A stretch of DNA of 64,000 nt from Callorhinchus milii. Taxonomy: Eukaryota. A program made the position numbers and the translations under genes. This document shows positions 35,521-60,084 of this stretch, one piece after another (the first letter of the stretch is position 1; every line of letters begins with the position of its first letter). The notes below the pieces were generated by a model that saw only the letters and a program-made list of their open reading frames with translations, did no database searches and had not been told where the DNA came from. The stretch is from the NCBI RefSeq assembly GCF_018977255.1, contig NW_024704742.1, positions 70,372,001-70,436,000 of the forward strand, written 5' to 3'.

Positions 35521-35887
35521 AACAACAATAATAATAATTGCCTTATTACGTCTTCGAGATGTCTCAAAGCGTTTCACAGAATATACTGTAAAGTTAATTG
35601 ACTGTATATTTTGTAGGCGAAACGCGGCAGCCAATTGTGCAGAGCAGCGTCCCACAAACAGTCATGGATTCAGTTGACCAATTTATTATTGTTATTTTTT
35701 TGAAGGAAATTATTACCCCCGGAAAAGCGATCCGCCATTTGACTAACAACCGGGTTCCTACTTACTGCTTGGTAAACAGAGGTGTGTGCAGCAAGGAAAC
35801 GTGCCCAACATTTTGCTGTGCCGAGAATCGTACCCAGGTCTCTCGCTTGCGAGGCGAGTGCTCTAACCACTGAGCTACAAGACTCCA
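35521..35887 (-). mobile_element. SINE family A copy inserted into a family C repeat
   Basis: Family C sequence ends at ...cactgctgat (35520) and resumes at gatgacagcacag (~35900). Confidence 0.8.
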
Positions 35888-36499
35888 TAGTGATGACGGA
35901 TGACAGCACAGTCAGCCTGGCTCATCGGCAGGACTTGGAAGGGCAGACGAGTCACTGGAGGCAGGGACTCTTCAGGCTCAGCTCCCACTAACCCTGCAAA
36001 CCAAAGCCCTAATGGGTAGGGTGGTTCTAGCTGGACAAGCAGTTGGAATCCTGTCAGACAGTGCTCTCGAAGGCAAGCTTTGCAGTTTCAACTGGTTAAA
36101 CTCCAGGATTTACTCCAACGCACACTCTGTGGTCCCCAAGCCTTAGCTCTTGCCAACCTGCACCTAATACTATAATAGTAATAATATTCACGTGTTCGAG
36201 ATGTGCTAAAACGCTTCACAGAATATATTGTAAATTGGATTGACTGTATATTTTGTCGGCGAAATGCAGGGCCAATTGTGCAATGCAGTGTCCCACAAAC
36301 AGTTGTGGATTGAGTTACTTTTTTTGGTAAGGTTTATTACTCCCAGGAAAGTGATCCGTCAATCGACTGAAAGGTAGGTTCCTTGTTATTTTACGGTTAG
36401 ATAAACAGAGGCCCTGAGATGGGGATTTTACAATGTTACAGTGTACATCAGCTGTATGGATTACTAATACTCTCCAGAATTAGGTAAGCAGGCTGTATC

Positions 36500-37065
36500 C
36501 AACAACAACAACAACATGGATTTATAACTTGGATTTATATAGCGCCCTCCACGTCGGACGGTGTCTCAAAGCGCTTCACAGTAACGGATCCCGGGGCTGA
36601 GCCAGGGGGAGGGGGAGGAAGGTGACCAAAGGCGTGGTCAAAAAGAAAGATCTTCAGCTGAGACCTGAAAATAGGAAGAGGGGGAGCGAGACGAAGGGAG
36701 TTCCAGAGCCTCGGGGCATAGTGGCTGAAGGCATGGCCGCCGAGGGTGGAGCGGAGGACTCGGGGGACGAGGAGAAGGCCAGACCCGGAGGAATGAAGGC
36801 AACAGGTACTGTTTTGAGCAGAGAGGAGGTCAGAGAGGTCGGGGGTGCAGAGGAGTGAAGGGACTTGAATACAAGGGTGAGAATTTTGAAGTCGATCCTC
36901 TCTGGGATAGGGAGCCAGTGCAGTCTGGCAAGGACTGGGGTGATCGGGGAGCGGAGTTTGGTGCGGGTGAGAATGTGGGAGGCAGAGTTTTGAATAATCT
37001 GGATTTTATGGATGGTAGGGGATGGGAGGCCGGCGAGGAGGGCGTTAGAGTAGTCCAGGCAGTGA
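36500..37065 (-). mobile_element. L2-clade LINE 3' end (subfamily 2)
   Basis: ORF 36654..37157 contains LDYSNALLAGLP...IQNSASHILT...LARLHWLPIPERIDFKIL. Confidence 0.85.
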
Positions 37066-37664
37066 GTGCACATTGCATTCCAAGAAATATCTTGGGAATT
37101 TCCGTGTGCAGGTGGGATGTATGTAATTCTCAGTTTGTTGTGGATACTCTTAAGCATGGTGATGGGTTTCCTCCTAGCAAGGATTGTGGAAATGGAGATA
37201 CGGCGGGAGGGGTGGGGGGAGGAAGGGGTTTATATTTTCCAAGGTTTTGCAGGGGGAGTAGAATGGGCGGGGGACAAAGACTGAATGCATGAGAGGTGAG
37301 AATCCTCTCTCTGTGTGACTTTGACCTTGATGTAGTGCTGACGATTACACTGAGTTATACAATAAGCAGAGCTTGTCCCATTGTGATACACTCAGAGCGC
37401 GGTGGAGGCTCCCTGCTGAGAACGCAAGTGAACGGCTTGCACAGGGGAGGATGAGAATTGGAGGCGAGAACTGAGCGGGGGAATTCATGTGGTGCCTGGG
37501 CTCTGTCGCAGGAGCCTTACGTGACTCAGTCATTCCTCCTGATTGAACCCTCTCAGTCCAGCCCACCCGCAGACGGTAACCCTTTCACCCTTGGACTTAT
37601 TTCTTTTGTTGTAAAACAAAAGGTTCATTTAAAACTGGTGAAGTTCAGTGTAGTTTTTTTGGTG

Positions 37665-37930
37665 TCTGTGTTTGCATCTGTGTGCAGTTATGTGCGTGTG
37701 CATGTGTGTCTGCGTGCATGTTTGTGCGAGTGTATGTCTATCTGTATGTCTCTGTGTATATCTGTGTAGCTGCGCATGTGTGCCTGCATGCGTGCACGCA
37801 CATATATGTGTCTGTGTGGGTTTGTGCGTCCGTATATATGTGCGTGTGAGTGGTTGTTTGTGTGTGAGTGTGTGTGCGTGTGTGTGTATGTGTGTGTGTT
37901 TGTGTGAGCGTGTGTGTGTGTGTGTGTGTT
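37665..37930. repeat. Degenerate (TG)n microsatellite
   Basis: Direct inspection; a similar TG/TA-rich tract lies at ~61225-61620. Confidence 0.85.
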
Positions 37931-40900
37931 GGGAAATGACGAGCCAGTGGAGCCTGGTGAGGATTGGGTTGATGGTTGTATGGAATTTGGTGCAGATTAG
38001 GATGTGGGCTGCAGAGTTTTGGATGATCGTACTGTGTGGATGAAAGAGGTGTGGATGTTAAAAAGGAAACATTAAATAACAAGGAATGTTTGACACCGGA
38101 TAAAAAAAACACGGATTCATTGTAATGACGAGCGACACTGCAGCTTATAAAGATGTATTACTCAGCCGAATAATAGGCACCTGAGTACAAGTCTATTACA
38201 TGCTCAGTGATCTGACTGGGCTGTGTTTCTACATCACCGTTCCTTCTCAGGCAGAGCAAACGTCAGTCTGGCTCAGGCAATTGGCAGCACTCTCGCCTCC
38301 GAGTCAGAAGGTTGTGGGTTCAAACCCCCACATCGGGCACTTTGAGCTCAGGACAGTTTATTGGGGGGCAGCCGGGTATCTGACACCCTCGGCAACCCAT
38401 CACCCTGCCTTAAGAGTATCCGAACCAGTCTGAGAGCTCCAGCCTGCTTCATCTTCCCCACCTCGCCCGCCCCACCATTAACGGGCGGGCCTTCTGCCAC
38501 TCTGCCCCAACTTCTGGAACTTCATCCCGAGGTCCCTCCACCTTGCCCCTCCCTTGCCTCCTTCAAGACCCATCTCAAGAGCCTCCACTTCGACCATGCC
38601 TTCGGTCACCCTCCTTCCCCCTCTAACCTCCACCTTCTCCAATTCCGACCTCCAGCTCGGGTCTGAAACACTGATTGTCCAGCGTTTTGGGACATCCTCT
38701 CGACGTGAAAGGCGCTGTACGAATATAGTTTTGTTGTTGTTGTTGGAGGCAGAACAGGGCACAGAAGGGGCTTGGGTTTAACGTCTCATGCAAAGGACGG
38801 CACCTCTGACAATGCAATGCACCCCCACTACCACACTGGAGCGTCAACCTAGACAATTTAAGTTTAAAGTCCATGATGCGGGGCTTGGACACACAACCTT
38901 CCAACTCAGAGGCAAAATCGCTGGCATCTGAGCATGATATCTGGGGAGAGATTGTTGGCCAGGGCCACTGGGAGAAACTCTCCTCTCTTTTTCGAGTAGT
39001 GCCACGGAATCTTTAATGGCACAGTCGGGACCTTGGAACATCTGGCCTTAAGGATGGCACCTCCGACAATGCAAGCACTGCACCCCCACCCACCCATCCA
39101 CCCACCGAGCACTGCGCTGGAGCATCAGCCGAGGCTGTGTGACTTAATATCATTACCTCCCTCACATACCTACTAATTACAACCACTAATAATATAATCC
39201 TTGCACTTGAGACGTCTCAAAACGCTCATAGGACTCAATAAGAAGAATCCTTGCATTTGATACAACTCCTTTCAAATCAGGAGACCATCACAAAGCACTT
39301 CACAAGATTCACTGTAAAGTGTAGTGACTGTGTATTTTGTGGGTGAACACAGTAGCCAATTTTGTGCATAGCCACGCTACTCAAACAGCCATGAAGTGAA
39401 TAACCCATTTTATTGGGATTGTTGGCCAGGACACTGTGGGGTTGGAGGGGAGAGAAACTCCCTTCTCTAATGAATGGGCTCACCTGAGTATTGGTCAGTG
39501 AAGCCTCTCTTCCCCTCCCATAACTAGTCCTCACCTCACGATCCCCTCTGCTCTCACCGTCTATATTCACATCACATCCCCCGCAGTCAGGGTGACTTAC
39601 TAGGATCCACAGCAAATCCTTGCTGAGTTATATCTAAGGGAAGAGCTGGCAGATTAATAGGAAAATTTACATGTATGTTTAATGAATAAAATATTGGCCC
39701 GGGATGTATTATACATAAACCTGACGGGTTCAAAAAGTCGCTGGTTTTAAATTTCAAATGTTTTCACTCATCTAAAGTGAATCTAAATTCATTTTGAGAA
39801 TGATTTTTCATCTTCCCTCGTTTCAAAAGACACAAATATTCCATTACCTACTGTGTATCAGCAGCTGTTTAGAAGTCTCACGTTCAAACACTTGTCTCTG
39901 TCTCAGTACTCCTGTATAATTGTTGTTCCACCCGCCCCACCCCTTCATTAATTGATTTGGTGTCTGTACGTCAGGGACTGTGAGTGCACAGTCTTAGGCT
40001 GATGCTCCAGTGCAGTGCTGGTGGGTGGGGGGAGGATAGAGTTGGAGGTGCCGTGCTTTGGATGAGATGGTAAAATGGAGGTTCCATCTGTGTTGGTTCA
40101 GGCAGATATCAAAAATCCCATTGTTGGGAAAAAGAAATGAGTTTCTCCCAGTGTCCTGACCAAGAATCCTCCTGGATAAAAAATGGTCCTTTACTTCATG
40201 GCTGTCTGATGGAGGCCATGTAGAGAGCAACGAGGATGATCCCTGGTGTTCGAGGGATCTTATGGATAACATTTTTAATGGGATTGAATGAGTATACTCA
40301 GATCAATGCTTTTGGATGCACTGAAACAACAAAAAAGGTCACAGGTTTAGAGGTGTAAAGGGGCAACTTTGGATAGACACCAGGAAGTATTTTTTTCCCC
40401 AGAGGGTATTAATAACTGGAACGGGGTTACCAGGAAGTGGGGTTGAGGCCAGCACACTGGGACTCATTTAAGAAACAGCTTTATGCTGTGATGGGAAGAT
40501 GGTTGACCTTCTGAACAGATCTGGTGATCTTGTGTGCAAATTGGCTGCTGTGTTTAATACAAAACGTTCACTACATCTGTTTATAAGAGCTAGGAAGCAT
40601 GCCAGACATATCAGTATGGAGAGGGGATGAGGAGAATGTTTGAAAACGCAGGAGTATTTAAGAGTGTGTGGGAGCGAGAGAGTGGGTTTACACTAGGTGT
40701 CTGATGTGGAGATAAACACAGGCACAGACTTGATAATAAACATTGCAATTTATGTAATAATACAGTAAACCCCTGGCTTAAAGCCCACATGATCCCCATA
40801 GCTTTCTAGCTCACTATTCTTTCTCTGGCATCCAGTGTCCATGTGTGTGAGTTACTGTTTTTTGGTTTACAGCAGTAGAAATCCATATGCACTGCTGGCA

Positions 40901-42419
40901 TTTTCCATCACTGCATATTTTTTGCAAAACCGGAATTGTAATATGCTTAAGCCAGAAATTCCGGCTTGCCAGACTGGATCTCCCTTTCCGTTAGTCCGGC
41001 TAGCCAAGGTTTATCTTTAAAAATAATCCTTACATTTGATACAGTGCCTTTCACGTTGGGAGGATGTCCAAAGTGCTTCACAGGATTTGTTGTAAAGTGC
41101 AGTGACGGTATGTTTTGTAGCCAAATGTATTGTATATTGTAGGGAAATTTCCATATGTAAGTGGTCTGGTGTGGATACTCTCCAAACACGGTGATGGGTT
41201 TCCATATGAGTCAGATGCCCAACGGACAAATAAAACAAGGTAGCCAATTTGCTCAAAGCAACGCTCTACAAACAGCCATGCAGTGTGTGACTGAGTTCAT
41301 TTGGGAGATTGTTGGCTAGGACAGCAGGAGAGAGAAACTCCCTTCTCTTTTCAAGTAGTGCCACGGGATCTTTAACGTCCACTTGAAAAGGCACATTATC
41401 AGATGTACCGTCCTTCAGCTGAGACGTTAGACGACTGGTTTAACGTCTCAGCCGAAGGATGGCTCCTCCAAAAATGCAGCGCTTCTCCCAGCACTGCCAT
41501 GGAGTGTCAGCCTAGACTGTCAGCTCAAAGTCCTGATGTGGAGACTTGAACCCAAAACCCACCGTATGGGTTGTCCTTCTGTGGGGATTTTGTATCCTAT
41601 GTTTCTCTGTTAAGCAACACTTGTAAAACATTACAAACTTTATTTCTAAACGTTGGGCGAATGAGCCCTGGACTTTGAATGTCAGATTTGAAAGCTTTGG
41701 CCTCTGGTGAGAAGCTTGTGTTAAAAAAATATACAATTTGCCTTTTTGTCTGTCAAAAAAAAGAGAAACGATGGAGAAGATGAAACAGGAATCAGGGCTC
41801 TACCTCAGGATATAGATCTGAAAGTTCAAAGATTTTCTCTCATCCTCTGCCACTATCAACTCAACAGATAGCTTTACACTGCTTCATCTGACAAGGCTAC
41901 AGCTTAGAGAGAGAATGAAAGAGAGGACAGACAGACAGAGGGGGAGGGAGGGAAAGAAAGAAAGAAATGAATACAAAAAGAGAGGGGAGAAAACGAAAGA
42001 TTGAGGAAGTAAAGAAATAGGAAAGGAAAAAGAGAGAGATGGAGGGAGAGTGGGGTGAGAGAGACAAACAGAAACACAGGGAGAGGATTTATGCAAAATT
42101 CTACTTTGGTGTATTTGAAAGTGAAACTAGAGCAATATGTGAAGTGGAGGAGTCAGAGAGAAAGCGTGCTGATGTGGTGCCAATTAACTCCTTCACAGAA
42201 TCGAGATATATCCTCAACAGAGAGCCTGGGATCCACACAGCTTGGGACTGACCTCATTAAAATCATAGACATTTACCGAAGGAGGCCATTCAGCCCATCG
42301 AGTCTGAACTGGCTCTCAGAGCAAGCTGTCTGTTCAGTCCCACTGCCCCGTCCTATCCCCAAACACCCTCAAGCCTCTCCTTATACATTGTGCAAATCAA
42401 AACGGTGTAGATAATGAGT

Positions 42420-42795
42420 CTGTGTATCTCTTTCTCTGTCTCTTTCAGGCTCTATAACAGTTTCTCTCACTCTGATTATAATTCTCTCTGCCTCTCATTC
42501 TCTCTGCATCTTTTATTCTCTGCCTCTAAAACTCTCTCTGCCTGTATAACTCTGCTTCTATACTTCTCTGTCTTTATAACTCTTTCTTTCTGCCTCTATA
42601 ACTCGCTCTCCCTGACTCTATAACTCTCTCTCTGTCTCTATAAAAGTCTCTCTTTGACTCTATAACTCTCTCTCTGTCTCTAAAACAGTCTCTCTGACTC
42701 TACAACTCTCTCTGTCTCTATAACAGTCTCTCTCTGACTCTATAACTTCCTCTCTCTGAATCAATAACACTCTCTCTGTGACTCTATAACTCTAT
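42420..42795. repeat. ~19-21 bp CT-rich minisatellite (ctctataactctctctg)
   Basis: Repeated tataactctctct units. Confidence 0.85.
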
Positions 42796-45700
42796 CAAAG
42801 GGCAATAAAAACAATAATCCTTGCATATGATACAGTAACATTCATATGGGGAGGACATCTCAAAGTGCTTCACACAATTTACTAAATAGTAACTGTATTT
42901 TGAAGATGAATACGGCAATTTAAAAATGTGATTGAAAGAATACACCTCAACAGTACTTTCGGATGCACAGAGACATATAAGGATATTGGTTTAAAATTGT
43001 AAAAGGCAATTTCAGAACAGACACCATGAAGTATTTCTTTCCCCAGAGGGTAATTAACCCGTCTGTGCTTGTTTGGATGGATGTTAAAGGTCCTGTGGCG
43101 CTATTGGAAAAGAGAAGGGAGTTTCTCTTTCCCAGTGTCCTGGCTGACAATCCTTCAGATAAAATTTGTAATTCACATCACGACTCTTTATGGGATGTTG
43201 CTGTATGCAAATATCAAATGCAAGTATTATTATTCTTTCTCGCCTTTTTATTTGTCCCCATACCACTGAATTCCCTTTCACCCTAGATATGCCTTTTAAA
43301 CAGCGCACAAAACATACAGTCACTCCAATTCACAGTAAAACACTGTGAAGCGATTTGAGACAGCCTCTTGATGTGGCAGGATGCTGTTATCAAACACCAA
43401 GATTATTGTAAGTATCTGAGTGCTTTGTGTCTTCTCGGTTGAAAGGCATAACAGTTTTCTCTGATGGTCTCTCCTCCTCCGTCATAACTCGGACCACTTA
43501 GGTGTACGCACTGTACCCTGTCACCCTGCCCCGAGCTCCGTCTGATACATCAGTGTCTGGAGTGCAGAGCTCCCAGAGTTGCACACAGTATACCAGGCAT
43601 CACCTCATCAATCATACACATCAGCTTAGAGCCCACTTGTTTCAATTTATATTCAAATGCCCTTGAGATGAATCCCGGAACATGACTGGCTTTCCTGATC
43701 TCAGCTTCCCATCGGCTCAGTCAATCAAGTTAATGGACTAACCATGTGCTTTGTGTCGTTCTCCCCACCCCCCATTCTCCTTCCCTCCCCCTCCTCCTCC
43801 CCTCAGCCCCCCCTCCACCCACCCATCAACATTCAAATCCGTACTTACAGGTTCAACAGTGTCACTACTTGTGATAGAATTGATAGCCTGAGAGCTGGGG
43901 GTCGTGTGCGTGCGTGCTTGTGAATATTACTTAAATGCCAATATAGTTTATATTAATCCTTATATTTGATACAGTGCCTGCAATGTCACCAAGCTCTTTG
44001 CACAGTTTCCACAGAGTGTAGTAATTGTGGGATTTGCAGGCTAACATGGTAAATAACAATCCTTACATTTGATACAGTGCTTTTCACATCAGAAGGACGT
44101 TTAAAGTGCTTTACTGGATTTACTGCAGAGTTCAGTGACTGTATTTTGTAGGTGAACATAGCAGCCAAATTGCACACAGCAAATTTCAACAAACAGCCTT
44201 GAAGTGAGTGACTGATTTTAGCTGGGGGATTGTCGGCCAGGGAGAGAGAAACTCCCTTCTCTTTACGAAGAGTGCAAATCCACCTGCACAGAGTGCAAGT
44301 CCACATGCACAGAGCAAACACAGGCACCTTGGTTTAATGTTTCGTCCGCAAGACAACATAATGCTCCCCCCCAGCACTGCACTGGAGCATCAGCCAAAGT
44401 GTAAGCTCAAAGTCCCCAATGACTCAGGTGAAGAGCAGGGAGTTGGGATTGCACTGGATGGCTTCAAAGCAGGAGCATACCCCAACATGTTAAAATGGGC
44501 AGAATGGCCTCTTAGAGTGTCCTACATTTCTGTTGTTGTATCTGAAAAAGAAACACATCACAGTGTGGGGGGCAGTGGAACTGAATTGATAACACACTGC
44601 ATTGTCAGAGGTACCGTCCTTGGCTGAGGCACTGAACCAAGCTCCTGTCTGAGTCTGGTCAGGTGGGCGTTGCAAATCCCAAATCGCTATTGGAAAAGCG
44701 AAGGGAGTTTCTCCCGACATTCATAGCCAAGAATAATCCCCCCTTCCTCAGCCAAAGATTGCCTCTGTATGGCAACAACACTGTGTGCAAAACAGGAGCG
44801 GTGTTTAAAACAGTCACTTGACAGGAAAAGTGGCGCTGCCAGCAACCTTGCCTTGTGTTCCGCACACATCCCCAGTCAACTGTCAGCGCATTATCCATCA
44901 AATAATCTTTTAATCCCTCCCTTTTTGTTTTCTTTTTATCTTGTTGCACTATGTTGTCTTTTGGGTAATCCTCCTAATCCCTTTCCACTCGTTCTGAATC
45001 CCGTACGTCATTGTTTTCCTCCCGGGGAAATGAACGGCTTCGGCCGTGGCAATGTATTACAGAATACAGAATAATATCCCAACAATCCTTGCCTTTAATA
45101 CACCACCTTATCCAAATGCCTCAAAGGACTTTACTGTCAACCGCAGTGACTATGTATTTTATGAGCAAATGTGGCAGCCAGTTTGCGCTCAGCAATGTCC
45201 TCACAAACATCCAAGCTGTTAGTGACCGTTTTTTGGGGGGGAGGAATTGTTGGCCAGAACACTGGGAGAGAGAAGCTCTCTTCTCTTTTCCAAATAGTGA
45301 CATGGGATCTTTCTCGTCCACCTGAACAGGCACAGATGGAACCTCCATTTAATGTCTCATCTAACGATGCCTTAGAGAAGTATTGCATTGGAGTATCAGC
45401 CTAGACTGGGAGCTCAAAGTCCCACTCGGGGATTGAACCATAACCTCTGAATCAACAACAATAACTTGCATTTATATAGTGTTGGGACTTTGAGCTCTCA
45501 GTCTGAGCTGACATTCCAATTCAGTGCTGGGGTTGTGCTACATTGCCGGAGATGCCATCCTTCAAATGAGATGTTAAACTGAGGTCCTGACTATGCCAAT
45601 TCAGGTGGACATTAAAGATCCCAACGGCGCTGTTGGAAAAGAAGCAGGTTTCTCCCAGTGTCCTAGCTGACAATCCCATAGATAAATTCATTATTCACTT

Positions 45701-46585
45701 TGTGGTTGTTTGTGAGACAAAGTCTTAAATTCATGCCCTCGTTCATTTTTTTGGTCAGCCAATTGTTTGACACACGTGGAAACCCATCAATACGCTTAAG
45801 ATTATCCAATCCCGACTGAGACTTCTACATATGTTTTCCACCTACCTACACAGGAAATTTCTCTGTGTCTGGAATAAAATGTGCATTCTCTCCCCAGAGA
45901 CGCATCTTGTTTACGTAATTCTGGGGAGCATTAGACGCAGGTTGGCAGGAGCCAAGGTTTGGGGACCCCAGAGTATGCTGACTCCTGGAGTCTAACCAGC
46001 TAAAAACACATAGCTTGCCATGGAGAGCACTGTCTGACAAGCTTCCTGCTGCTTGTCCAGCTAGGACCACCCTACCCATTAGGGCTTTGACTTGCAGGGT
46101 AATCCGATAGTAGCTGGTTAAACTTTAAAAAATTCTACTAATATTTACAGGTTAAACAGTTATCCCCAAAATGCACACTGTGGGTATCTCCAAGCCTTAG
46201 CTCTCACTAGCATGTGCCCATTATGCAGGGAGCATCCCTCCTGCAAGAGAGAGAGAAAGTGAGTGCGTATTCATTCCAGACACAGGGAAATTTCCATGTG
46301 TAAATGGCGTACATACATGGAACTCTCAGTCTGGATTGGAGACTCTTAAGCACTGTGATGAGTTCCCACTTTTGTCAGACACCTAGCTGACCAAAATAAA
46401 GATAAATACAATGCAATTCACATTATAATTTACATTTAGATAGTGCCCTTCATCATCTCAGCACTCACTCACAAAGGCAGCTACAAAAAACAGTGGAGCT
46501 TACCATCTGTGACAGCCACATATAGTGGATCAAAGTAATCTTGATTTTGATCCCCCCCAAATTGCATTTCATACCTATTTCTCCT

Positions 46586-46591
46586 TTTATT
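46586..46591 (-). promoter_or_regulatory. Candidate polyadenylation signal AATAAA for the INSYN2B-like transcript
   Basis: TTTATT on + strand about 390 nt past the stop codon; no transcript evidence. Confidence 0.3.
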
Positions 46592-46982
46592 TCTCAACCC
46601 CTGTGTGTGTGTTTGTGTGTGTGTGTGTGCGTATGTGTGTATATACTGTGCGCGTGTGTATATATATATATATCTAGTAGCAATTGTTAAACTATTTAAA
46701 CTTATTTTTTTAAATATAACATTCTTAAATTACATCCTGTAAATATCAGTAGAATTTTTTTTCATTTTTCTTTGTTCTGTGGTGATATTTCTAAAAATAC
46801 AAAAAAGATGTTCGGAAGACGGACACTTGGCGGAAACAAAATGTCTTCCTTGAAATCCCCGGAGAGGAAATGGTCACGGGGAGAAACAAGAAGTAGCAGC
46901 CTCCATTTTCTGTTCCTCCCCCTCCCTGCTTCTTCCTCCCCCCAGGGGTTCAGTCTTAAAAAATATAGACGGGTTCCGGAGT

Positions 46983-47175
46983 TTATAAGAACCAAAAGCA
47001 TTTCCTTTTGGACTTTTTTGGCTCTGTCCTGGCCGTTGGCTGTGGTATGGGACTCTCTTCCTGCTTGCTCAAGGGCGTGCCAGGCTGCTCCGAATTTTGA
47101 CCCCAAGCGCCCATCTCCATGTCACTCAGGACCTTGTGGAACCTGACTTCCTGCTGCCTGAAATCGTGCTCCACG
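46983..47175 (-). CDS. INSYN2B: Terminal coding exon of nested inhibitory synaptic factor 2 (INSYN2/FAM196) family gene: (S)VEHDFRQQEVRFHKVLSDMEMGAWGQNSEQPGTPLSKQEESPIPQPTARTEPKKSKRKCFWFL*
   Basis: Minus-strand acceptor tcattctcccttttctccctggcag|C, phase 2; TAA at 46985-46983; SVExDFRQQExRFHxVL and the basic KKxKxKCFW C-terminus match INSYN2B as recalled; position inside DOCK2 matches the mammalian arrangement. Confidence 0.85.
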
Positions 47176-47339
47176 CTGCCAGGGAGAAAAGGGAGAATGA
47201 CAACAAAACAAGAATAATCTCTCAACACTGACCACGCAGACCGCTCTGTCCCTTTATGACCTGGGCGTGGTAACCGCAGTAAAATCGGCTGCTCTGACCC
47301 ATTTATCATGTGGGGCACGGAGACGGAAAAGGGAAACCA

Positions 47340-47690
47340 CAACAACAAATTACATTTACACAGTGGCTTTCTCGTCAGGAGGACGTCTCAAGGAGCTGGA
47401 CAGTCAGGGATTTGGACCCGAGCAGAGGATTAGGATCAAGAGAGGTGGAGGGCAGGGTGGGCAGGGGGGTGACCAAAAGCACGGTCAAAGAGGAGGGTTT
47501 TGAGACGCATCTTGAAGGAGGCAAGGGAGGGAGTGAGGCGAAGGGACTGTGGGATGGAGTTCCAAAGGTTGGGGGCAGGGAGGCTGAAGGCTCGACCGCC
47601 GATGGTGGAGCGTGCCGGGAGGGGGCCATGGAGCAGGCTGGAGCCTGCAGAGTGGAGGGAGCGGACAGGTTGATATGGAAGCACTCAGTT
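47340..47690 (-). mobile_element. L2-clade LINE 3' fragment ~165 nt upstream (in INSYN2B sense) of the last-exon acceptor
   Basis: ORF 47436..47684 encodes GGRAFSLPAPNLWNSIPQSLR...FKMRLKTLLF. Confidence 0.8.
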
Positions 47691-50600
47691 TGAGGCTGTG
47701 AATTTATAGAGAGAGAGACATAATGGGGGTCAACCTCTTTAGTCAGCTGAAACCCATTTCCATAAATATTCCATAATAATATAATTATATAATATGATAT
47801 ACATTAGATAATAAAATATAATAATATAATTCTTATACTGTATTTGATACGGTGCTTTCATGTTAGGAGGGAGTCTCAAAGCACTTCATAGGACTTACTG
47901 TAAAATATGAAGTCCTCCTGACGTAAAAGGTGTTTAAAATGTAAATTGTATTGTAGGTGGAGTGGTTGTGTGTTTTGTAGGCGAACATGACCAGGGGCAG
48001 AGAGGCAGACAGCAACGTGTGTGTAAGGGGAGAAAAAATAATGGGATGACTAAATTTATATTGAATAAACCTTTTGAAGAGAGCAGGAGACACAATTTCT
48101 GGCAAATACAAAGCTCTTACAGATATGGACATGAAATCTCAGGGCTGTTTGCAAGTAGCGGTGTTGATTTTAATCGTCTTTAAGTCCTGGCCTGATGGAC
48201 ACATGAGATAAAGTAAAGCCTAATCGAAACAGATGCTTGCCATTTGTCCGAGAGGGTTTTTGGTGGAATGTAATAATGGGTTTCAGTAAAGCTCGCTTGA
48301 CATTGTCCGTCTCTCTCTCTGGTGTTTTGTAGAGAATCCCATCAGCCCCTGTTTATCTGCCAGCCTGACCACTGTAGGCCTGCGGCTGAGAGATGGCAAC
48401 AACCTGCACTCAACTAGGGTCAATGACTGGATGAGCCACAGAGACGGAGAAGGGAAGGGAGATCAGCGACCAGGAAGGGAGGAGAGGGAGGGAGAGGAAG
48501 ATCGAGGGTGTTGACCAAAAACATGGTCAAAGAGACAGGATCTGATGAAGACAGGGATCTATAATAATAAGTTTTTTGTTTGTTTTGTTTTCCTTTGTTG
48601 TTTTATCATCAGGGATCTGGTGAGGATAGGGTGGGTTATGGAGAGACCTTCGGGGGAGAGCATTAATTAAGATTAATTATAATAAAAGTGATTTAGGTTA
48701 CTGTGAGGTGGATACATCGATTTCTTATTCTGTGGCTCAGACTCACTGGCATGTCATCAGCCAGGCTCCCTCGGGGAACGCCTGGGATTAATTAGGGACT
48801 GATATTGTTAATGAGCTGTGAGCAACGAACAGACAAGCTAGGGGGCTCTTCAGTCCTGAGAGAAGATGTCTCAAAGAGGATTTTATAGAGGTGAACAATA
48901 GTTTAAATGGGATGGAGAAAGTAAACCCAGAACAATACTTTAGGATGCACCAAAATAGTAAAGCAAGACGACACAGGTTAGAGTTGTAAAGGCTGTTGCT
49001 GTGGGCATATCTGCTGTCGAGTTCACCTACAAATACACAACACTTCACAGTTGATCCTGGGAAACACTTTGAGCTGTTTTGGCAACATAATATGGGGTTG
49101 TCTTGAATGCAAGGATTATTATCTAGAAATGCCTCAAAATGCTTCACAGGTGATTTTTAGTGACTGCATCTTGTAGGCAAACGCATCAGCCAATCTGCGC
49201 ACAGCAACATCCCACAAACAGCTGTGAAGTATCGTTATAAAACGAATTCAGAGAAAAGGTGATTTATTGAATAGATTAACATTAATTATAGTAAATGGTA
49301 AAATTACGATTTTGGTCTCTGATTTAGGTGAGCAGGACTCCCTATGGTTCTATAGGAAATATCATAAATAATGTTTCACTGCATTGGTAAAAAAAATGTT
49401 TTGCATTCTGACCACCGCATTATAACACGGCTCCACTGTACACTCAAATTCTTTCCACTCCTCCCTGCTCGATGATCCCCATCAACATCTTGGTCTTCAG
49501 GGTATTAATCCTGTATGGAGGGCGATGTAAGGGCATTTGCTTGCTTGCCAGGTATAGGATAGAAACAAGACTGGGACAGGAGAGACACAGGGAGAGGATA
49601 GGAGATCAGCTGCAGTGCTTATTAAACGCTGTTTGCAATCTCCTACGCACAACTTTCGCGTTGCCTGGAAGCCAACTTCAAGCCCTGTGTAATTTCGTTT
49701 ATTTTTATGTGCAATAAACTGGAAAATAGGTGAGGGAATGTTTGGAAGGCCTGACGGGCGAGGTTTGATGTTATTAAAAGAAATTAAAAATTGATTTTTT
49801 TCTTCCACGTTTCCCCCCATGCGCCACTCACTGCCCGCCACCAAAATGCACAAGTGAAAGTGATTTCACGGGCTCTTAACTTCAATATATCTGTAATTTA
49901 ATTATCCCAATAAGTCCCAATAATTTTTTTAAAAAGAAAAGAGAGAGCGAGAAAGAGAGGGAGAGAGCCCGTTTCATGCTCCCAATGATGTGGAAGGTTC
50001 ATAAATAATAATCCTTACATTTGATACAACAGCCTTCACATCGAGAGGATATCTCAAAGTGCTTTATAGGATTTTACTGTAAAGTGCAGTGACTGTGAAT
50101 TTTGTAGGCAAATGTGGCAGCCAGTTTGCACACAGCAATGTTCTCACAAACAGCCATGAAGTGAATAATAATAATAAAACTTGCATTTGATACAGGACCT
50201 TATCACATCATTGCGACATCTCAAAGCTCTTCACAGGGAATCCTGTAAAGTGAATTGACTGTGGGCGAAACACAGCCAGTTGCACAAAGTGTTTGTGGGA
50301 CAAGTTCCAGAGACAGCAATGGAGTGAGTGACCAATTTTATCTTGGGGACTGTTGGCCAGAACACCGGGAGAAGCTGCGTTCTCTTTTCGAACAGTGCCA
50401 TGGGATCTTTAACATCCACCTGAACATGCAGATGGGACCTTGGTTTAATGTCGCATCTGAAGAGACACAGTGACCTCTGAAAATCACCATCCCTTTTAAC
50501 ACTGACCCGAGGGACACTTCCTCTTTAACGCTCTGAACCCTGGTGACACATTGAACAATCTCTGCACCTGATGCTAAAATCCCCCTTTAATATTCACATC

Positions 50601-52494
50601 ACTGATGTCCAGAATACAATTTCCCTTAACATTCAGGACACTGACTGCCTGTGCTGCTGTCTCTGACAGCCTGGGTTTAGGCAATATGAATTGCCTCTGA
50701 AAAGAGTAAAAAATAAGCCTCTATTTGGAAAACTCATTCAAATTAAATCAAAGGTGTTTGTATTGGGTGAGGTCAGCAAATAATAAGGTATTAAATAAGG
50801 TTTTTGATTGAAAATAACTAGCGCTTTGACTTAGCATCCCAAAGTGTGCGCTGACTGCAAAGGGTGGATAGGTTTAAAGGTGCAATCATTGAAGTGAGAT
50901 CTTCGTCTATTGTTGCTTTTTACTGAGTTTTTTTTGGTTTAAAGCCCTGAATTTGTGACTGAGCTAAGAATTTTTTTCTATTTATGACAGAAAGTGTCCT
51001 GTCAGCCTGGTACAGTTGTTAGCACTCTCACCTCTGAGTCAGAAGATTGTGGATTCAAATCCAAAGTTGGGACTTGAACTCATAGTCCATGATCGCGCTC
51101 CAATGCAGTGCTGGGGATGTGCTGCACTGTCATAGGTGCCGTCCTTTGGATGAAACATTAAACTGAGCTCCCGTCTGCCTGTTCGGGTGGACGTTAAAGA
51201 TCCCATGCCACTATTCGAAAAGAGAAAGGAGTTTCTCCTGGTGTCCTGGCCAACAATTCCCCAAATAAAAATGGTCACCCACTCCATGGCTGTTTATCGG
51301 ACATTACTGTGTGCAATTATGCTGCCGTGTTTGTCTACAAATACACAATTACTCCATTTTCACAGTAAATGCTGCGCCATCCTTCGAGTGAGACATTAAA
51401 CCAAGCTCCCTGTCTGTTCGGGAGGTCATTAAAAATCCTATGGCGCTATTGGAAAAGAAAAGGGAATTTCTCCTGATGTCTTGGCCGACAGATAAAATCT
51501 CTGGGTAAAATCAGTCACTCACGTCACGGCTGTTTGGGGGCATTTGCTGTGCGCAAGGCGGCTTCTGCGTCCGCCTACAATATACATAGTCACTACATTG
51601 AATAGTAAAATCCTGAGAGCTCTCAATGCTGTGAAAAGGCTCTGTATCAAATGGGAAAGATTATTGTGTTATTTATGTAATCCTGCATCAGTCGGTCTCT
51701 CATACGCCTCAATTGATTCCTTCGCCACGTTAGCTATGTCTAATCCCGTGTTGAATTCACTGTCACAATCTGCGTTCTCCACTTCCCTGTGGCAGTCTGT
51801 CACCACTGCTCACTGTGTAATAATATTAATCATCAATGCTGTCATCACCTCACTCTCCCCAGGTCCCAATATTCTGCCTTTGTCATGGCAGAAGGTTGTT
51901 TTCTCCCTAACACGATACCCAGGATTTCTGAGATTCTCAAATTAGGTCTGTAATAGGAAGCTGTTTTCTCCCGGTGTCTACTTCTCCAATAGAGCTCGAT
52001 ATTTCAACAGACTCCTGACTAGGTGTCAGCCTGGCTGAGTTTTTAGCACTCTCGCCTCTACTTCAGAAGGTTGATGGTTCAAAAGGTTTTACAGTGAAGT
52101 GCGGTGTCTGCGTATTTTGTAGGCGAATGATTTGCACAAAGCATCCCCCTACAAAACAGCCATGAAATGAATGACCATTTTTTTTATCTGGGGAGGGGGG
52201 GGTGGGGGTGCATTTGTTGACCAGGACATCAGGAGAGAGAAACTCCCTTTCTTTTCGAGTTGGGCCACAAGATCCTTAACGTCCACCTGAACAGATACAG
52301 ACGAGACCTTGGTTTAATAGCAGATTGATTGCATTTATATAGTGCCCTTCACGCAGGGTAGTGAAAAAGGCATTGGAGCGTGAGCTCAATGTCCCTTACA
52401 ATGGGGCTTCAACCCGCAACAGGGGATGGAAAAAGGGGGAAAGGGAAGGTGACCATTGACCCGATCAAAGAAGTAGGGTTTAAGTCAGGACGTG

Positions 52495-53170
52495 AACAAC
52501 AACATCAACAACAAGTTGGATTTATATAGTGCTTTTCATGTCCCAAGGCGCTGGACAGTTGTCACTCAAACTGGGGATTGGAATCAAGGGGTGGAAGGTG
52601 GGGGCTGGGGTTGGGGGGGGAAGTTGGAGGATGACTGAAGGCACACGCAAAGAGGAAGGTGTTGAGACAGGCCTTGAAGGAGGCAAGGGAGGGGGCGAAG
52701 TGGAGGAACTCCGGGATGGAGTTCGATAGGGGTGGGTGGGGCAGAAAGGCTGAAGGCCTGACTGCTGATGGTGGGATTGGTAGGGTGGGGACCTGGAGCA
52801 GGCTGGAGCCTGCTGAGGAGAGTCAGCAGTAAGGTTGGTGTTAGTATCTCACAGAGGTAGGGAGGAGCGAGTCCGTGGAGGGCTTCGAAAGTGAGGACGA
52901 GGATCTTGAACTGAATCCTCTGAGGGACAGGAAGTCAGTGAAGCCGGGTGAGGATGGGGGTGATCGGGTCAAGGAGCGGGAGAGGATCTGCAGCTTGTGG
53001 AGGGAAGAGTTGGGAAGTCTGGTGAGCAGGAAATTCGTGCAGTTAACCTTGGACGTGATGAAAGCATGGATAAGGGTCTCTGCGGCCTGAGGGGGGAGGC
53101 AGTGACAGAGGTGGTGAATGTTGCGGAGGTGAGGGAAGGCAAAACGGGTCATGGCATGGAATGACCCTTC
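52495..53170 (-). mobile_element. Older degraded L2 fragment
   Basis: Translated AETLIHAFITSKVNC..LP..SLHKLQIL; (GTT)n-like tail. Confidence 0.7.
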
Positions 53171-54840
53171 CTCTGCCCTTTGCCTTCCTCCCCTGAAGAT
53201 ATATTGGGCAGTGGAGAGAGACAAAGGGGTAGAGGGAGGAACTTCCAGAGGTTAAGGACATAGAACCTGATAGCTTGGTCACTAATGTTGGGACAGAGAG
53301 GGAGGGGATTCCCAGCAGGCCCTGAGTTGGGGGGTGGGGGGGAGCAGAGGAATGGATTAGGACAAGATCAGAGAGATAGGGAGGTGCTAGGGCGTGAAAG
53401 GATTTAGAGGTTAGGGAAGCATATTGCTCTGGGTTTACTTTTTCAGACCCATTTAAAATTTTATGCACCTCTGGGTTAGAAGCTCTTTCCTTCCATTTTA
53501 ATGAGCCTGGAATGGAATATAGAATGGCTGAGCCTATTACTATTTTATTTCCTTTCAATGTGATCTTCAGGAATAGTCTGGCTCAGTCAGTAGCATTCTC
53601 GACTCAGGCAGAAGGTATTGGGTTTGAGGTCCCATGTCGGGGACTCTGAGCTCACAGTCCAGGCTGATGCTCCAATGCAGCGCCGGGGGGAGAGCGCACT
53701 GCATTGTTGGAGTTGCGTTCTTCGGATGAGACGATAAACCGAGCTCCCCATCTGTGCATGTTCAGGTGGACATTAAAGATAAAAAACATGGGTCAGTCAC
53801 TCCATGGCTGTTTGTGGGATGTTACTATGTGCACATTAGCTGCTGTGTTCGCCCACAAAAATACACAGTCACTACACTTCATAATAAATCTTGTTAAGTG
53901 CTTTGAGACGTCCTCCCAATATGAGAGGCCATGTCTTCGGCAAGGGTTCTCAATCGGCAGAATTCCTGCCTCTCACAAATGTAAGGATTATTATTATGAT
54001 TATTTTTATGCCCTTTTCTGATTTCTTCTGAGCTTGTCGAAATGAGTAGAATGACGGAGATAGAAGCCGGCTGTAACGTTTGTGCCGATCTTCCCATCCC
54101 ATCCGAGTCTGTCGCTAATCAGCAAATTAGATCTCTCTGTTGCAAAAAAGAAAGCAAAAGACTTTGAACAAGGCTCCCAGCCTTTGGAAACCTCACGGTT
54201 GTTGTTTAGCATTGCGCTGTAAATCCATTATTCTCAGTAAAATAAAAGTTGAAATTAAATAATCATAACAGCCCCTGAGCGAGCTGGATACAAATATTAC
54301 GTGGAAACACACTTTCTTTTCTCTCATTGTTAAAATTGACCTAACCTTGTTACAAAGATTATTTTTAATACATCTTTTTGAGATCTTTTCAAAGAAGCAA
54401 ACTTGAGTTTAATTGAATTTATAGCACAAGGAACATAGAGAGGCAGAGGCGGGAGGGGAAGGAGTGAGAAGTGTAGCCAGGGGGAATCAGGAGAATCATC
54501 GAATCTTATAGGGCAGAGACCATTCGGCCCATCATGCCTGTGCCGACTCCTCCCTCTTACCCCATAGCAATGCAAATCTTTCCTTTTCAAGTACCTATCC
54601 AATTCCCTTTTGAAAGCTCCTATTGAATCTGCATCCACTAGCCTTTCAGGCAGTGCATTCCAGATCGTAATACAGATCTAGCAAATGATGAATTCAGGTC
54701 ATTTGCTTATCTTATTTCCTAGCCAGAGAACCTGTTTTGTCTTGAAATTTAAGAATAAGTACTGAAAATTAGTCAATTCAAATCTAGAATTCGGAAGCTA
54801 TGTTTTCTGTCGTCCACCACTCTATAAAACCGCACTGTAT

Positions 54841-55495
54841 AACAACAACAACAACAACAACAAGATTCCATTTATAAAGCGCCTTTCACGTCAGGAGGAC
54901 GTCCCAAGGCACTGCACAGTTGGGTCATGACCCGAGCAGGGGGGAAATGGTCAGGGTGAGGGAAGGGGAGGGAGCGAGGAGGGGGGAAATGGTCAGGGTG
55001 AGGGGAGGGAAGGGAGGGAGCGAGGAGGGGGGAAATGGTCAGGGTGAGGGGAGGGAAGGGAGGGAGAGAGGAGGGGAAGAGAGTCGAGAGGGGAGCTGAA
55101 GGCTCGGTCAAAGAGAAAGGTTTTGAGACCGGCCTTGAAGGAGGAAAGGGAGGAGGCGGCGAAGGCACTGGGGCATAGAGTTCCAGAGCCTCGGGGCTGA
55201 AGGCCCGACCACCAATGGTAGGGCGATTGGGGCGGGGGACGTGGAGCAGACCGGAGCCGGAGGAACGGAGGGTACGGGCAGGTAGGTAGGGGATAGTAGG
55301 TTGGAGAGGTAGGAGGGAGCGAGGCCGTGAATGGCCTTGTAGGTGAGGATGAGGATCTTGAAATCAATCCTCTGGGGGATGGGGAGCCAGTGGAGGCGAG
55401 CGAGGGTGGGAGTGATGTGGTCCCGAAGCCTGGTGCGGGACAGTACACGAGCTGCAGAGTTCTGAATGACCTGCAGCTTGTGGAGGGAGGTGGCA
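54841..55495 (-). mobile_element. L2-clade LINE 3' end (subfamily 1) with 3 copies of the 3' UTR repeat
   Basis: [41 protein letters not shown]; (GTT)7 tail. Confidence 0.88.
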
Positions 55496-57492
55496 TTGGC
55501 TACAAAATTCACAGTCACTACACTTTACAGTAAGATCCTGTGAAGTATTTTGAGACGCCCTTCCAACATGAGAGGAAGCTCCACATCAAATGCAAGGATT
55601 AAAGTCGGTAAATCCTCACTGCTGAGTCAGAAGGTTGTGTGTTCAAGTCACCAGATTAGAGACTTTGAGCTCAGTCTAGGCTGACCCTCCAATAGAGTGG
55701 GGAGCACTGCATAGTTGTAGGAGCTGAGCTTTGGATGAGATGTTAAACTGAGGTCCTGTCTGTGCCCTCTTCAAGTGGACGTTAAAGATCCGGTGAAGCT
55801 ATTCGAAAAAAGAAATGGGAGTTTCCCTTTCCTGCTGTCCTGGCCGACAATTCCCCCAGATGATATTGACATGATACTGACATGTTTGGCAAAAGAATTT
55901 CAGAATTGAGCCAACCTTCTGCGGAGTCTTGCAGTTCAGTTCCTGAGCCAGACGGGTCCCCAGTATTCCAGGGCCACTGCTGATGACAGCACAGCCCAGC
56001 CTGGCTCATCGGCAAGAGCTGGAAGGGCAGATCATTCACGGGGGGCAGAGAATGCTCCCACAGGTCCTGTTAACCCTTTAAGCCAAAGCCCTAACCCGTA
56101 GGATGATCCAAGTTGGACAACCAGCAGGAAAGCTTGTCAGGCAGTGCTTTCAATGGTAAGCTATGCATCTTTAGCTGATTAGACGCCAGCAGTTACCCCA
56201 ACCCACATTCTGGGGTCCCCCGAACCTCGGCTCTTGCCAACCTGCACCTAATACATCCAGAATTAGGTAAGAAGGACACGTCCCTCCAGGGAGAGAGCGC
56301 ACATTTCATTCCAATAAACCTCTCTGGAATCTCCATGTGTAGGTGGGATGCATGGAATTCTCAGTTTGGGTTGGAGACTCTGCATGGCAAGTCACCCGTC
56401 TGACCCCCAAAAAATATGTAAATTGGGCTGCCAACAAAAATAGTCACTTCACTTTACAGTGATGGACTTTGAGACACTCTTCCGACGTGAAAATCACGAT
56501 ACAAATGCAAGGGTTATTTTTATTATAGGTGTGACAGGGAATTCCCGAGACAAAACAGAGATGTCACACAGGATTCTCTTTTATTACAGAGCTGAACATT
56601 GACCTGGAATGTAATTCAGATCTCTCAGATGATTTTTGTTTTTGCTCTGCCGGGTGTCTGATACATGCGGATACCCGTCAGCATTCTCAATAGTATCCAA
56701 ACCAAACTGAGAATTCCATGCATCCCACCTACACATGGAAATCCCAGAGTTTGTTGGAATGGAATGCGCACTCTCTCTCCCTGGAGGGACGGGGATAAAT
56801 AAACTATATTCAAACACCTTCTCCTCAGGAGAACATCTCAAAGTGCTTCACAGGATATTACTGTAAGCGAACGAGGCAGTCAATTGATGAAGCAAATTTC
56901 CATCTTTACAGGGGGCGGGAGGGGATATTGTCGGCCAGGACAATGGGAAAGAGAAACTCCTTTCTCTCATTTTCCAATAGCGCTGCGGGATCTTTAACAT
57001 GCGCTTGAACAGGCTTCTGACTCAGAGGAGAGCGTGGTAACTGAGCCAGACTGTTAGTTAAAGTGAAGTAAAAATATTTCACTGTTTGAGCCATTGGACC
57101 AAATATGCCCACGAGCTCGAATCATTAACACATTTTTACTGCAGTTTTTGAGCTAATGAATCAATTGGATTTGATTAATCAACATAATCTCTGCTCAGTT
57201 TGCCCTTGAGGAAAGGCATAATTGATGTGCCTAATGAGGAGGTTTAGTCTGTGGTTCATTGGATCTGAAATTTCTCATGGTCTTAGCCTTAAGATCATCA
57301 TCTCTGCCATCGATACAAAAAAAATAATAATGTGGTCACTCAATCCACGACTGTTTGAATTTGGCTGCCACGTTTCACCCACAAAATATACAGTCAATTC
57401 ACTTTACATTATATTCTGTGAAACGCTTTGAGACATCTAGAAGATTTGATAAGGCGCTATATCAAATTCAAGGATTCCTCCTATGGAGTCCT

Positions 57493-57822
57493 GTGGAGTC
57501 CTGTAGCTCAGTGGTTAGAGCACTCGCTTTGCAAGCGAGAGACCTGGTTCAATTCCAGGCAGAGGGTGAAACCTTGGGCAAGTTTCCTTACTCCACACAG
57601 AGCCTAATAATAATCCCTCCAAAACCAAAAATAGTAATAAATTGGTCATTTTCAATCTACGACTGTTTGTGGGACATTGCTGTGCGCAATTGGCTGCCGC
57701 GTTTGCCCACAAATATACAGTCAATTCACTTTACAGTGTGTTCTGTGAAGCGCTTTGGGCCGACGTGAAAAGCGCTATATCAAATGCAAGGATTATTATT
57801 ATTATTATTATTATATATTATT
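57493..57822 (+). mobile_element. SINE family A copy with a duplicated 5' end, abutting an upstream SINE tail
   Basis: tggagtcctgtggagtcctgtagctcagtggttagagc at 57483; (ATT)n tail. Confidence 0.8.
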
Positions 57823-59769
57823 ATATCTTGCCATTCTGCCCCCGGGCTCAAGGACTCCATGCTGGAGTTGTAATGTGTTGTTCTGGATTTAATTTTTTTA
57901 ATCCCATTTAAAATTTTATCCACCTCTGTGAGGTCCCCTCTGAGACATGTTCCATCATGACTAAAGAGCCCCAGACAGACACCAGGAAGTATTTTTGAAC
58001 AACTGGAATGGTGGTTGCCGGGAAGCGTGCTTGGGGCCGGGAAGCTGGGACTCACTTAAAAAAGAGCTTGATGCCGTGACGGGGGGATAGTCAGGCAGGT
58101 ATTCTTGGGGGATGAGGTCAGATGGGCCGAAAGGCCTTCTTTATCCGAAACCTTGTGAGTCAAAGGCAGAATGGGCCTGTGCTCCTTCAGAGAGAGCAGA
58201 GGGAGAGGAGACCATTTCCATTCAATCTGAGTTGGATTCCAGCCCAGAATTTAAGAGATGAAGAGTGGAGTCAGCACACAAGTCTGAGGGCAGGTTTGGA
58301 AGGCTGCCATCCTGAGGGACATTAATCAAAGACAACTTCTTGCCTTCAGTCTGGGCTGGATTTCAACTAGTTCTCCGGGTTTTGGGAAGACGCAGTGTAA
58401 TATTTAAAAGACGTCTCTCCGAGGGGACCAAAATAAAATTCTAAATGGAACTGAGAAAGTAAACCCAGAATAATACTTTTAGATGTGCCCAGACAGTGAA
58501 AAGTTTCGGAGTTGCAAGTGGCAATTTCAGGACAGGTACCAGGAAGTATTTCTCTACATAGATTAATGACTGAAATGGAGGGATTACCAGCGGGGCTGAT
58601 TGAGGCCAAGACCCTGGGACTCATTTAGGAAACGGCTCGATGCTGTGATGGGACAACAGTGTGGGGAGAGGGGGGGATTCTCGAATGACCAGATCATAAT
58701 AGGCCAAAAGACCTTCTTCATATGATCTAATCTCATGCTCTGGTGACCTTGTGATCTGGTGATTTTAAGATATGATGGTCTTAGAACTGTAGAACCACAG
58801 AAACTTACAGCACTGAAAGAGACCATTCAGCCCATTGTATCCATGATGGTTATTTTTAAGGGCGATCCTTTCAATCCAATTTACCTGGCTTTTTTTCCCC
58901 CCATTTCCCTGTGGCTTACTGCCCTGGCTGGCTGAGAGTTAAACTCTCTAGGGTGGTACCAGGCTTACTGTCCGAGACATGGAGCACTCGTGTGCTTGAT
59001 AGCCAGCATGTGTAATGGCTTCCAGTCGCCCTACAGCAGTCCCGCTGTCTCCCACTCTCACTACTATTTCTCACTGTTCCTGCTAATTCCCGCTGCTCCA
59101 GTAAGCTCTTCCCACGCGTTAAGCAGCTTACACTGATTCCTCGCCACCGTTGTCTTTAATCTGCTGTTAAAGGGGACTGAGACGCGCTGCCCTACATCCC
59201 CCAAGAAAGGGCTTACCCGGTATTTTTGTAATGCCTCTGCGATTATTTAAATAATAATAATAATCCTTGCATTTGATAATTTGATTTTCCAGGAAAAGTC
59301 TCAAATGTTTTGAGTAGGCTGGTGCGTTTATATTTTTATAGGTGAATGCGGCAGCCAATTTGCACACAGCAAAGTCCCACAAATGGCCATGAAATGAGAG
59401 ATTTTATCTGGGGAATTGTTGGCCAGGATACCGGGAGAGAGAAACTCCCTTCTTTTTTTGAGTAGCGCCTCGAGATCTTAAACGTTCACCTGAACAGATA
59501 CAGATGGGAGCTTGGCTTCACGTCTCACCCGAAGGACGGACCCTGTGACAATGAGTGCCTCCCCCCAGCACTGGGCTGGAGCATCATCCTAAACTGTGAG
59601 CTCAACGTCCCACCGTGGGGGTGGGGGGACTGTGGAGAATAGGGAGGGGGGCTTGAACCCACCACATTCTAACCCATGACCTTTCAAATGGGAAACAGAT
59701 CCACCGTCCATCCACAGACAATATGAAAGGGCCCTGAAGCCATTCACACTGAACCGTGGGGTGCCACAA

Positions 59770-60084
59770 GAGGTGTCTCAAAACGCTTCACAGAAGTTAA
59801 TTGACTATATCTTGTGGTCGAATCGCAGCAGCCAATTGCGCACAGTAGTGTCCCACAAACAGTCGTGGATTCAGTAACCAAATTATTTATTTATTTTGGA
59901 GGGATTATTATCCGCAACCAGAAAGTGATCCAATCGACTTACAACCTGGTTCCTACTTACTGCTAGGTAAACAGAGGTGTGTGGAATAAAGAAGCTTGCC
60001 TAAGATTTCACCTCGCCCTGAAATCAAACCCACGTCCTCTCACTCGCGAGTCAAGTGCTCTAACCACTAAACTACAGGACTCCA
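59770..60084 (-). mobile_element. SINE family A copy
   Basis: Reverse complement of the head ends at ...ctacaggactcca (~60084). Confidence 0.75.

Follow-up and report, generated by a model that had tools for sequence, protein, structure and literature searches.

Which two genes share this stretch of DNA from the elephant shark (Callorhinchus milii), one antisense within an intron of the other, and how old is the arrangement? The window, by which we mean the whole 64,000 nucleotides analysed, corresponds to C1:70372001-70436000, and our extended coordinates continue its numbering past 64000. A preliminary description read a minus-strand exon in this window as the end of an INSYN2B-like guest nested in DOCK2. 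Human INSYN2B (FAM196B) is indeed nested in DOCK2, and INSYN2A (FAM196A) in DOCK1; DOCK1, DOCK2 and DOCK5 form the DOCK-A grouping. Our analyses support the nesting and revise the identity of both partners. We favor, with a probability of about 0.85, a history in which an ancestral nested pair was brought to four copies by genome doublings, so that the window holds a fourth DOCK-A ohnologue and a third INSYN2 paralogue, including the mechanistic steps proposed below. The anatomy of the window pair, its paralogy and the intron it has in common with its relatives are shown by the data. The features are collected in Table 1.

Table 1. Features of the host and guest genes in and beyond the window.
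Feature	Position	Strand	Basis or remark
Host, fourth DOCK-A ohnologue, 14 exons, residues 421-927 of XP_042199746.1	1086..34347	+	Labelled DOCK2 or DOCK2-like in databases
Host LLRTVNR exon	34252..34347	+	The intron with the guest begins at its donor
Host intron, phase 0, about 66.7 kb	34348..64000, ends at extended 101011	+	Whole guest coding region inside
Guest ATG exon, residues 1-420, 1258 bases	C1:70441640-70440383 (extended 69640-68383)	-	One base short in assembly
Guest middle exon, 75 bases, ending CIIY AG|gt	C1:70437283-70437209 (extended 65283-65209)	-	Protein mapping
Guest last intron	47176..64000, leaving the window toward the middle exon	-	Protein mapping to genome
Polypyrimidine tract and CAG acceptor	47176..47205	-	Sequence; 13/857 YAG sites equally pyrimidine-rich
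Last coding exon, third FAM196/INSYN2 paralogue	46983..47175	-	Split Ser codon, residues 446-508, TAA
Probable 3' UTR	46586..46982	-	Putative end at the first AATAAA (46591)

The guest's last exon has every element attributed to it from the letters alone. Direct inspection of the minus strand finds pyrimidines at 22 of the 27 bases preceding the acceptor at 47175, a richness matched by 13 of the 857 YAG sites on that strand between 34349 and 64000. One base finishes the split codon (the phase 2 start) and is followed by 63 open codons, the terminal peptide KKSKRKCFWFL and a TAA at 46983. Measured from the donor of the host's LLRTVNR exon, the distance to the stop is 12,635 bases, in agreement with the 12.6 kb first estimated, and the stop-to-stop open reading frame (46983-47387) extends into intron sequence, the fusion that had been said to mask the exon. 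The exon peptide matches the Pfam FAM196 profile (PF15265) with 48.1 bits (cut-off 27; E 1.7e-12) at profile positions 431-489 of 489, and is 100% identical to the C-terminal end of UniRef A0A4W3GW30_CALMI, a C. milii protein of 508 residues named FAM196B. Of 12 candidate proteins 11 were matches, every one of them from a cartilaginous fish, and an Atlas feature search returned FAM196 clusters only, all under 0.9. Many short fragments resembling the 3' ends of LINE retroelements occur, among them 413-856, 5816-6538, 26164-26865, 36535-37229, 47436-47684 and 54872-55524; the guest acceptor has one of these about 260 bases upstream.

Exact mapping of A0A4W3GW30_CALMI resolves the guest into three minus-strand coding exons with GT/AG ends at all borders, each of them matching Pfam FAM196. 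The upstream exons expected beyond 64000, one with a CIIY AG|gt ending, are both present there. The next host exon begins at extended 101012, so the entire guest coding gene lies within a single host intron. The profile match and this mapping bear out the claim that a cartilaginous fish carries a FAM196-family gene antisense within a DOCK-A gene.

The assembled coding exons sum to 1526 bases where 1527 are needed, and a frameshift near extended 68936 (C1 about 70440936; L011 about 4936) leads to a stop at codon 253, as would be expected if the guest were a recent elephant-shark pseudogene. The same-species UniRef protein is nevertheless intact, and only one other residue differs from the assembly within its last 273. 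Reads were matched to the whole 10-kb guest locus at 90% likeness; repeats dominated the joints and loose ends, and among those listed no splice junction of the guest was seen. A search of RNA runs for window positions 46700-47175 listed none, a result that speaks neither for nor against expression. Contigs from three runs belonging to two studies carry extra letters: 303 over 302 reference bases in run X2 (L011 4770-5071, which includes the site; one gap, no further change), 1963 over 1962 in run X3, and 2727 over 2725, with two gaps, in run X4. The gaps span the frameshift stretch and do not place the insertion to the exact base. The substitution separating the UniRef protein from the assembly (L011 4553; residue 363) is present in the same three runs. 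Because the UniRef protein is intact and the contigs of three runs carry extra letters, the frameshift is probably an assembly error, and a genuine pseudogene appears very unlikely. A fourth run, X1, which is RNA by guess only, holds 0.42 of the words and gives contigs at L011 4985-5197, 5386-5587, 5576-6050 and 6106-6308; some intronic bins of L011 are uncovered in it, holes that prove nothing given that its kind is guessed. Upstream of the guest ATG its contigs extend for up to about 670 bases (L011 5640-6308), possibly a long 5' UTR. Annotated N-terminal extensions occur there in shark relatives.

The host, mapped to the window exons, encodes a protein of 1834 amino acids (XP_042199746.1) with the SH3, DOCK_N, C2 (DHR-1), TPR and DHR-2 domains of a DOCK-A protein by Pfam, and with PDB matches along its length. 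Its GEF motif GIVDPAVMGG is intact, and the valine motif of DHR-2, which serves as the nucleotide sensor, is identical to that of galago DOCK2. A simple CT/GA-rich repeat of about 1 kb at window positions 18254-19332 gives spurious long open frames.

Our survey of the elephant-shark genome places this pair in a series. DOCK1-5-type genes occur on C1, C7, C13, C28, C5 and C12; the first four are of DOCK-A type, and the more distant genes on C5 and C12 are presumably DOCK4 and DOCK3. A genome profile search gave 10 FAM196 matches in three clusters, on C7, C13 and C1, and a hagfish query against the same genome revealed no further cluster. The intron after the LLRTVNR-equivalent exon measures about 67 kb on C1, 57 kb on C13, 59 kb on C7 and 373 bases on C28, and on C1, C7 and C13, three of the four DOCK-A hosts, a FAM196 gene lies within it antisense to the host. 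Exon phases are alike among the three guests. The C28, C5 and C12 stretches hold no FAM196 remnant (best E 0.36). The C28 gene, of DOCK5 type (C28:380001-430000), takes up a compact 40 kb or so, where each of the other three spans about 200 kb, and bears no guest. Three DOCK-A genes out of four thus have the guest in one and the same intron, so that the nesting predates the duplications, and the earlier suggestion that it is older than the split of DOCK1 and DOCK2 is supported.

The identity of the host is a different matter. Our host tree (580 columns, LG+G4) comprises 31 rows, 29 chosen database proteins together with exon rows from C7 and C28; its DOCK1 and DOCK5 rows consist solely of elephant-shark exon pieces, and the branching order depends on a single hagfish row with a long branch. 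A DOCK3/4-type row from C12, with 64 columns and a long branch inside DOCK2, was dropped, as was a duplicate C13 check row. The window gene falls into a 12-row clade (99/98) whose other proteins come from sharks, rays, lungfish, a caecilian, alligator and birds, and mammalian DOCK2 is united with the C13 gene in a clade of 16 rows (100/100). A topology constrained to join the window host to amniote DOCK2 is rejected (p-AU 0.0007). The DOCK2 orthologue of this species is thus the gene on C13, and the name first given to the window host does not hold. Identity to galago DOCK2 is 62.4% for the C1 protein against 77.5% for that of C13, and the PDB DOCK2 DHR-2 (2yin) scores 703.6 bits with the former and 817.1 with the latter; the full-length proteins of both score best with DOCK5 chains, totals that do not decide orthology. 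One exon from C7 scored best with DOCK1 and one from C28 with DOCK5. When the C2-domain exon of the window host was used as a query, 116 of the best 120 of 1047 matches went with the window gene by identity, 3 were unclear and 1 was DOCK2; the corresponding C13 exon gave 115 DOCK2 and 5 unclear among the best 120 of 446, many mammals included.

The guest follows its host. The guest search gave 165 representative matches, the best 150 of which were considered. The guest tree has 60 rows and 125 columns: the three elephant-shark guests, seven further named proteins and, out of 64 representatives, the 50 that have a complete C-terminus; the other 14 and 84 weaker matches were left out. Marsupial and rodent INSYN2B join the C13 guest (100/99), ostrich FAM196A joins the C7 guest (100/99), and the window guest lies in a third group of 32 rows (88/94), the rows having been picked by motif and the grouping being in that measure circular. 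Joining the window guest to INSYN2B is rejected (p-AU 4.9e-5); the INSYN2B of this species, like its DOCK2, is on C13. The two trees have the same shape, with DOCK2 or INSYN2B sister to the window gene and a long cyclostome branch at the root; the branching order of the guest tree rests on two lamprey rows. Both lamprey and hagfish possess FAM196 proteins.

These results bear on the simplest alternative, that the window pair is true DOCK2 and INSYN2B as the database labels say. The RefSeq name (dedicator of cytokinesis protein 2) and the UniRef name (FAM196B) favor it, and both trees put the window genes in a sister position to the clades of DOCK2 and INSYN2B. Against this, a better orthologue pair exists on C13, the tests above reject both groupings, and each of four species (elephant shark, Heterodontus, Pristiophorus and lungfish) has one protein in each of the two host clades, as do the palaeognath birds taken together. 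The C13 pair agrees with the window pair in its families, host intron, antisense orientation, three coding exons and phases. It differs in sequence: the window guest core is 62-65% identical to mammalian INSYN2B, that of C13 78-84%. It differs as well in the proline-rich tail of the host, found in 12 of 12 full-length fourth-clade proteins and in 0 of 14 DOCK2 proteins. The neighborhood, described below, is that of GnRH2. We consider this alternative extremely unlikely. The other relatives are further removed. The pair on C7 has the same intron and orientation as the window pair, and the window guest core is about 41% identical to ostrich FAM196A; the DOCK5 gene on C28 is of DOCK-A type like the window host, with a C-terminal PPPPPK-type motif in common. 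The elephant shark has DOCK1 with INSYN2A on C7, DOCK2 with INSYN2B on C13, DOCK5 alone on C28, and the fourth pair on C1.

The surroundings of these genes point to genome doubling as the source of the series. EBF genes occur on exactly C1 (70.67-70.73 Mb), C7, C13 and C28. Two-exon forkhead-I-type genes lie at C1:69.22, C7:23.12 and C13:13.76 Mb, which we take to be FOXI3, FOXI2 and FOXI1, and PANK genes are found on C1, C7 and C13, plus C24 and C377. DOCK-A and EBF genes therefore mark all four segments, and forkhead-I-type and PANK genes three of the four. Two neurophysin genes and GnRH2 lie within 16 kb (C1:68319340-68335381), 2 Mb from the host; a 10-residue GnRH model gave weak scores only, and the C1 GnRH2 was confirmed by translation. 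The genome search did not find a KCNMB gene on C13, a marker that speaks against the scheme, KCNMB1 being a neighbor of human DOCK2. The portion of PMC6135963 available to us places VT, OT and PANK2 beside GnRH2, DOCK1, FAM196A, FOXI2 and EBF3 at the GnRH3 locus, and DOCK5 at GnRH1. DOCK1 and INSYN2A are reported in one shared interval in an excerpt of PMC11840842, and that pair accordingly belongs to the GnRH3 segment, different from the window segment (PMC6135963, PMC11840842, both in excerpt). The GnRH paralogon as given in the accessible part of PMC3265131 consists of EBF1/2/3/4, DOCK1/2/5 and FAM196A/B. To this same four-fold duplicated region the window pair belongs; the list as given there has three DOCK and two FAM196 genes, without a fourth DOCK or a third FAM196, and the window pair fills those empty slots.

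We propose that an ancestral DOCK-A gene would already have borne an antisense FAM196 gene in one intron of its middle region, and that the early vertebrate genome doublings would have turned this nested pair into four copies. Alternatively, a segmental duplication that copied the DOCK2-INSYN2B block in some early jawed vertebrate could have given rise to the fourth pair. The sister position of the window pair to DOCK2 and INSYN2B in both trees is what this would produce, but two doublings also yield a sister pairing, and the surrounding EBF, forkhead, PANK and GnRH paralogues make up the fourth segment of a four-fold paralogon (that of PMC3265131, as far as its available text goes). Segmental duplication is consequently very unlikely, and we retain the doublings as the source of the fourth pair.

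The fourth pair is retained in sharks, lungfish, amphibians, reptiles and birds, and is absent from humans. The 18 named rows among the 32 of the third guest group come from chimaera, sharks, rays, lungfish, gar, a cyprinid, axolotl, turtle, lizards, owls, ostrich and tinamou, with no mammal among them in the best 150 of 165 matches. The named rows in the best 120 of 1047 window-host matches include sturgeon and neither a mammal nor a teleost. Absence from mammals is stated on these two sets of matches and on the mammalian family of 11 genes, three of them DOCK-A, given in the accessible part of a review (PMC3967044). Guest and host of the new clades are on a shared chromosome in five of the six species with records of both (Heptranchias, Heterodontus, Rhinoraja, lungfish and ostrich), which is linkage and not nesting; for the sixth, Scyliorhinus torazame, the two records come from visibly different assemblies.

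Both window genes are already annotated, under wrong names. RefSeq calls the fourth DOCK-A 'dedicator of cytokinesis protein 2' in elephant shark (XP_042199746.1) and in alligator (XP_059577139.1), and labels in the third guest group range from INSYN2B-like to mucin-2 and TFIID-subunit-4-like. Ray-finned fish have FAM196 proteins of 700-1500 residues with mucin, proteoglycan or TFIID-like labels. Long guest matches of 900-1500 amino acids looked at first like invertebrate relatives; the single one checked comes from a teleost and carries the label mucin-12. This divergent long FAM196 group may be a further teleost paralogue.

What the two proteins do can be outlined from their features. The host would be an ELMO-binding Rac exchange factor with a proline-rich adaptor tail of the DOCK1/DOCK5 type, to judge from its sequence; the proline-rich region of DOCK proteins is described as the site for Crk and Grb2 in the text available from PMC3967044. 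The guest has the FAM196 traits of a long C-terminal helix, a Cys motif and a basic/aromatic tail, and C433, C436, C441 and W506 are invariant in 43 sequences. Its predicted model has helices at 374-418 and 434-468 and low confidence in the remainder (mean pLDDT 51.5 over the full length). By analogy with InSyn2 at inhibitory synapses, the guest may be a scaffold, disordered over most of its length, in which a coiled-coil helix is accompanied by a Cys motif and by a basic/hydrophobic tail, the last probably anchoring it at a membrane; we rate this reading as a membrane-held coiled-coil scaffold at about even odds. InSyn2 was found by gephyrin proximity labelling and is reported at inhibitory postsynapses near gephyrin (PMC10913824, PMC5447330), INSYN2A being the family member for which such a synaptic role has been reported, and its function is called little studied (PMC10913824, PMC5447330, PMC11840842), in each case in the portions accessible to us; neither InSyn2 nor FAM196 occurs in PMC6944460. 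The guest would be transcribed from its own intronic promoter and spliced over its three coding exons, and the host would remove the 66.7-kb intron whole by splicing.

Expression of DOCK2 is mainly haematopoietic, and the preliminary description had pictured a largely haematopoietic host sharing DNA with a guest from a neuronal family, plausibly through mutually exclusive expression. Since the window host is a gene other than DOCK2, with a proline-rich tail that is missing from DOCK2, that idea cannot carry over; a blood-versus-brain explanation is moreover unneeded because the nesting is the same in DOCK1 and in the fourth gene. We suggest instead that nesting persists mainly because a rearrangement parting guest from host would break the host, so that it could end only by loss of the guest or of both genes. 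It is also conceivable that selection for regulatory coupling, through shared enhancers, transcriptional interference or mutually exclusive expression, has kept the genes together, an account that fits the paralogy equally and competes only with the structural reason for persistence. Since the duplications the guest has persisted in three hosts out of four, all three with long introns, and developmental regulators (EBF and forkhead genes) are close by. Nonetheless, the DOCK5 copy survives after loss of its guest, retention would be the default for a nested gene, and comparison of the C1 intron with six pieces of about 3-4 kb from the C7 and C13 introns, a small sample, gave no unique non-coding match that would point to a shared element. 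Regulatory coupling is thus unlikely, though by some way the best placed of the alternatives considered here, and the structural constraint remains our preferred reason. In the boldest form of the idea, host and guest may be coupled in regulation and the guest may have survived the loss of the host in teleosts. The third guest was found in a cyprinid, and the best 120 of 1047 host matches contain no named teleost host.

We found no description of a fourth DOCK-A or a third FAM196 gene in the open full-text literature, a scope outside which lie subscription papers such as the 2011 GnRH paralogon studies. Among the papers searched by term, FAM196C, INSYN2C, INSYN2B-like and FAM196B-like had no match, and a single match to 'dock2l' came from one chicken preprint; a term search of 12 of the 13 supplementary files of PMC6135963 found only DOCK1, DOCK5 and FAM196A. 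Orthology databases may already hold the fourth-pair group. It is tempting to speculate, and we do so tentatively, that most non-mammalian jawed vertebrates possess an unrecognized twelfth DOCK, sister to DOCK2 with a tail of the DOCK1/5 type, together with a nested third inhibitory-synapse scaffold, that mammals lost both as a unit, and that the genes have been filed as DOCK2, INSYN2B, mucin and proteoglycan.

In summary, the result is a correction of gene identity and history and not a new mechanism. A fourth DOCK-A gene, beyond the three usually counted, is present in sharks, lungfish, amphibians, crocodilians and birds, and 'DOCK2' in comparative immunology or association work on these species may be the wrong gene. 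One nested pair was lost whole in the human lineage. The four-copy series, with three hosts that keep a guest and one that does not, offers a clean natural experiment on nested genes.
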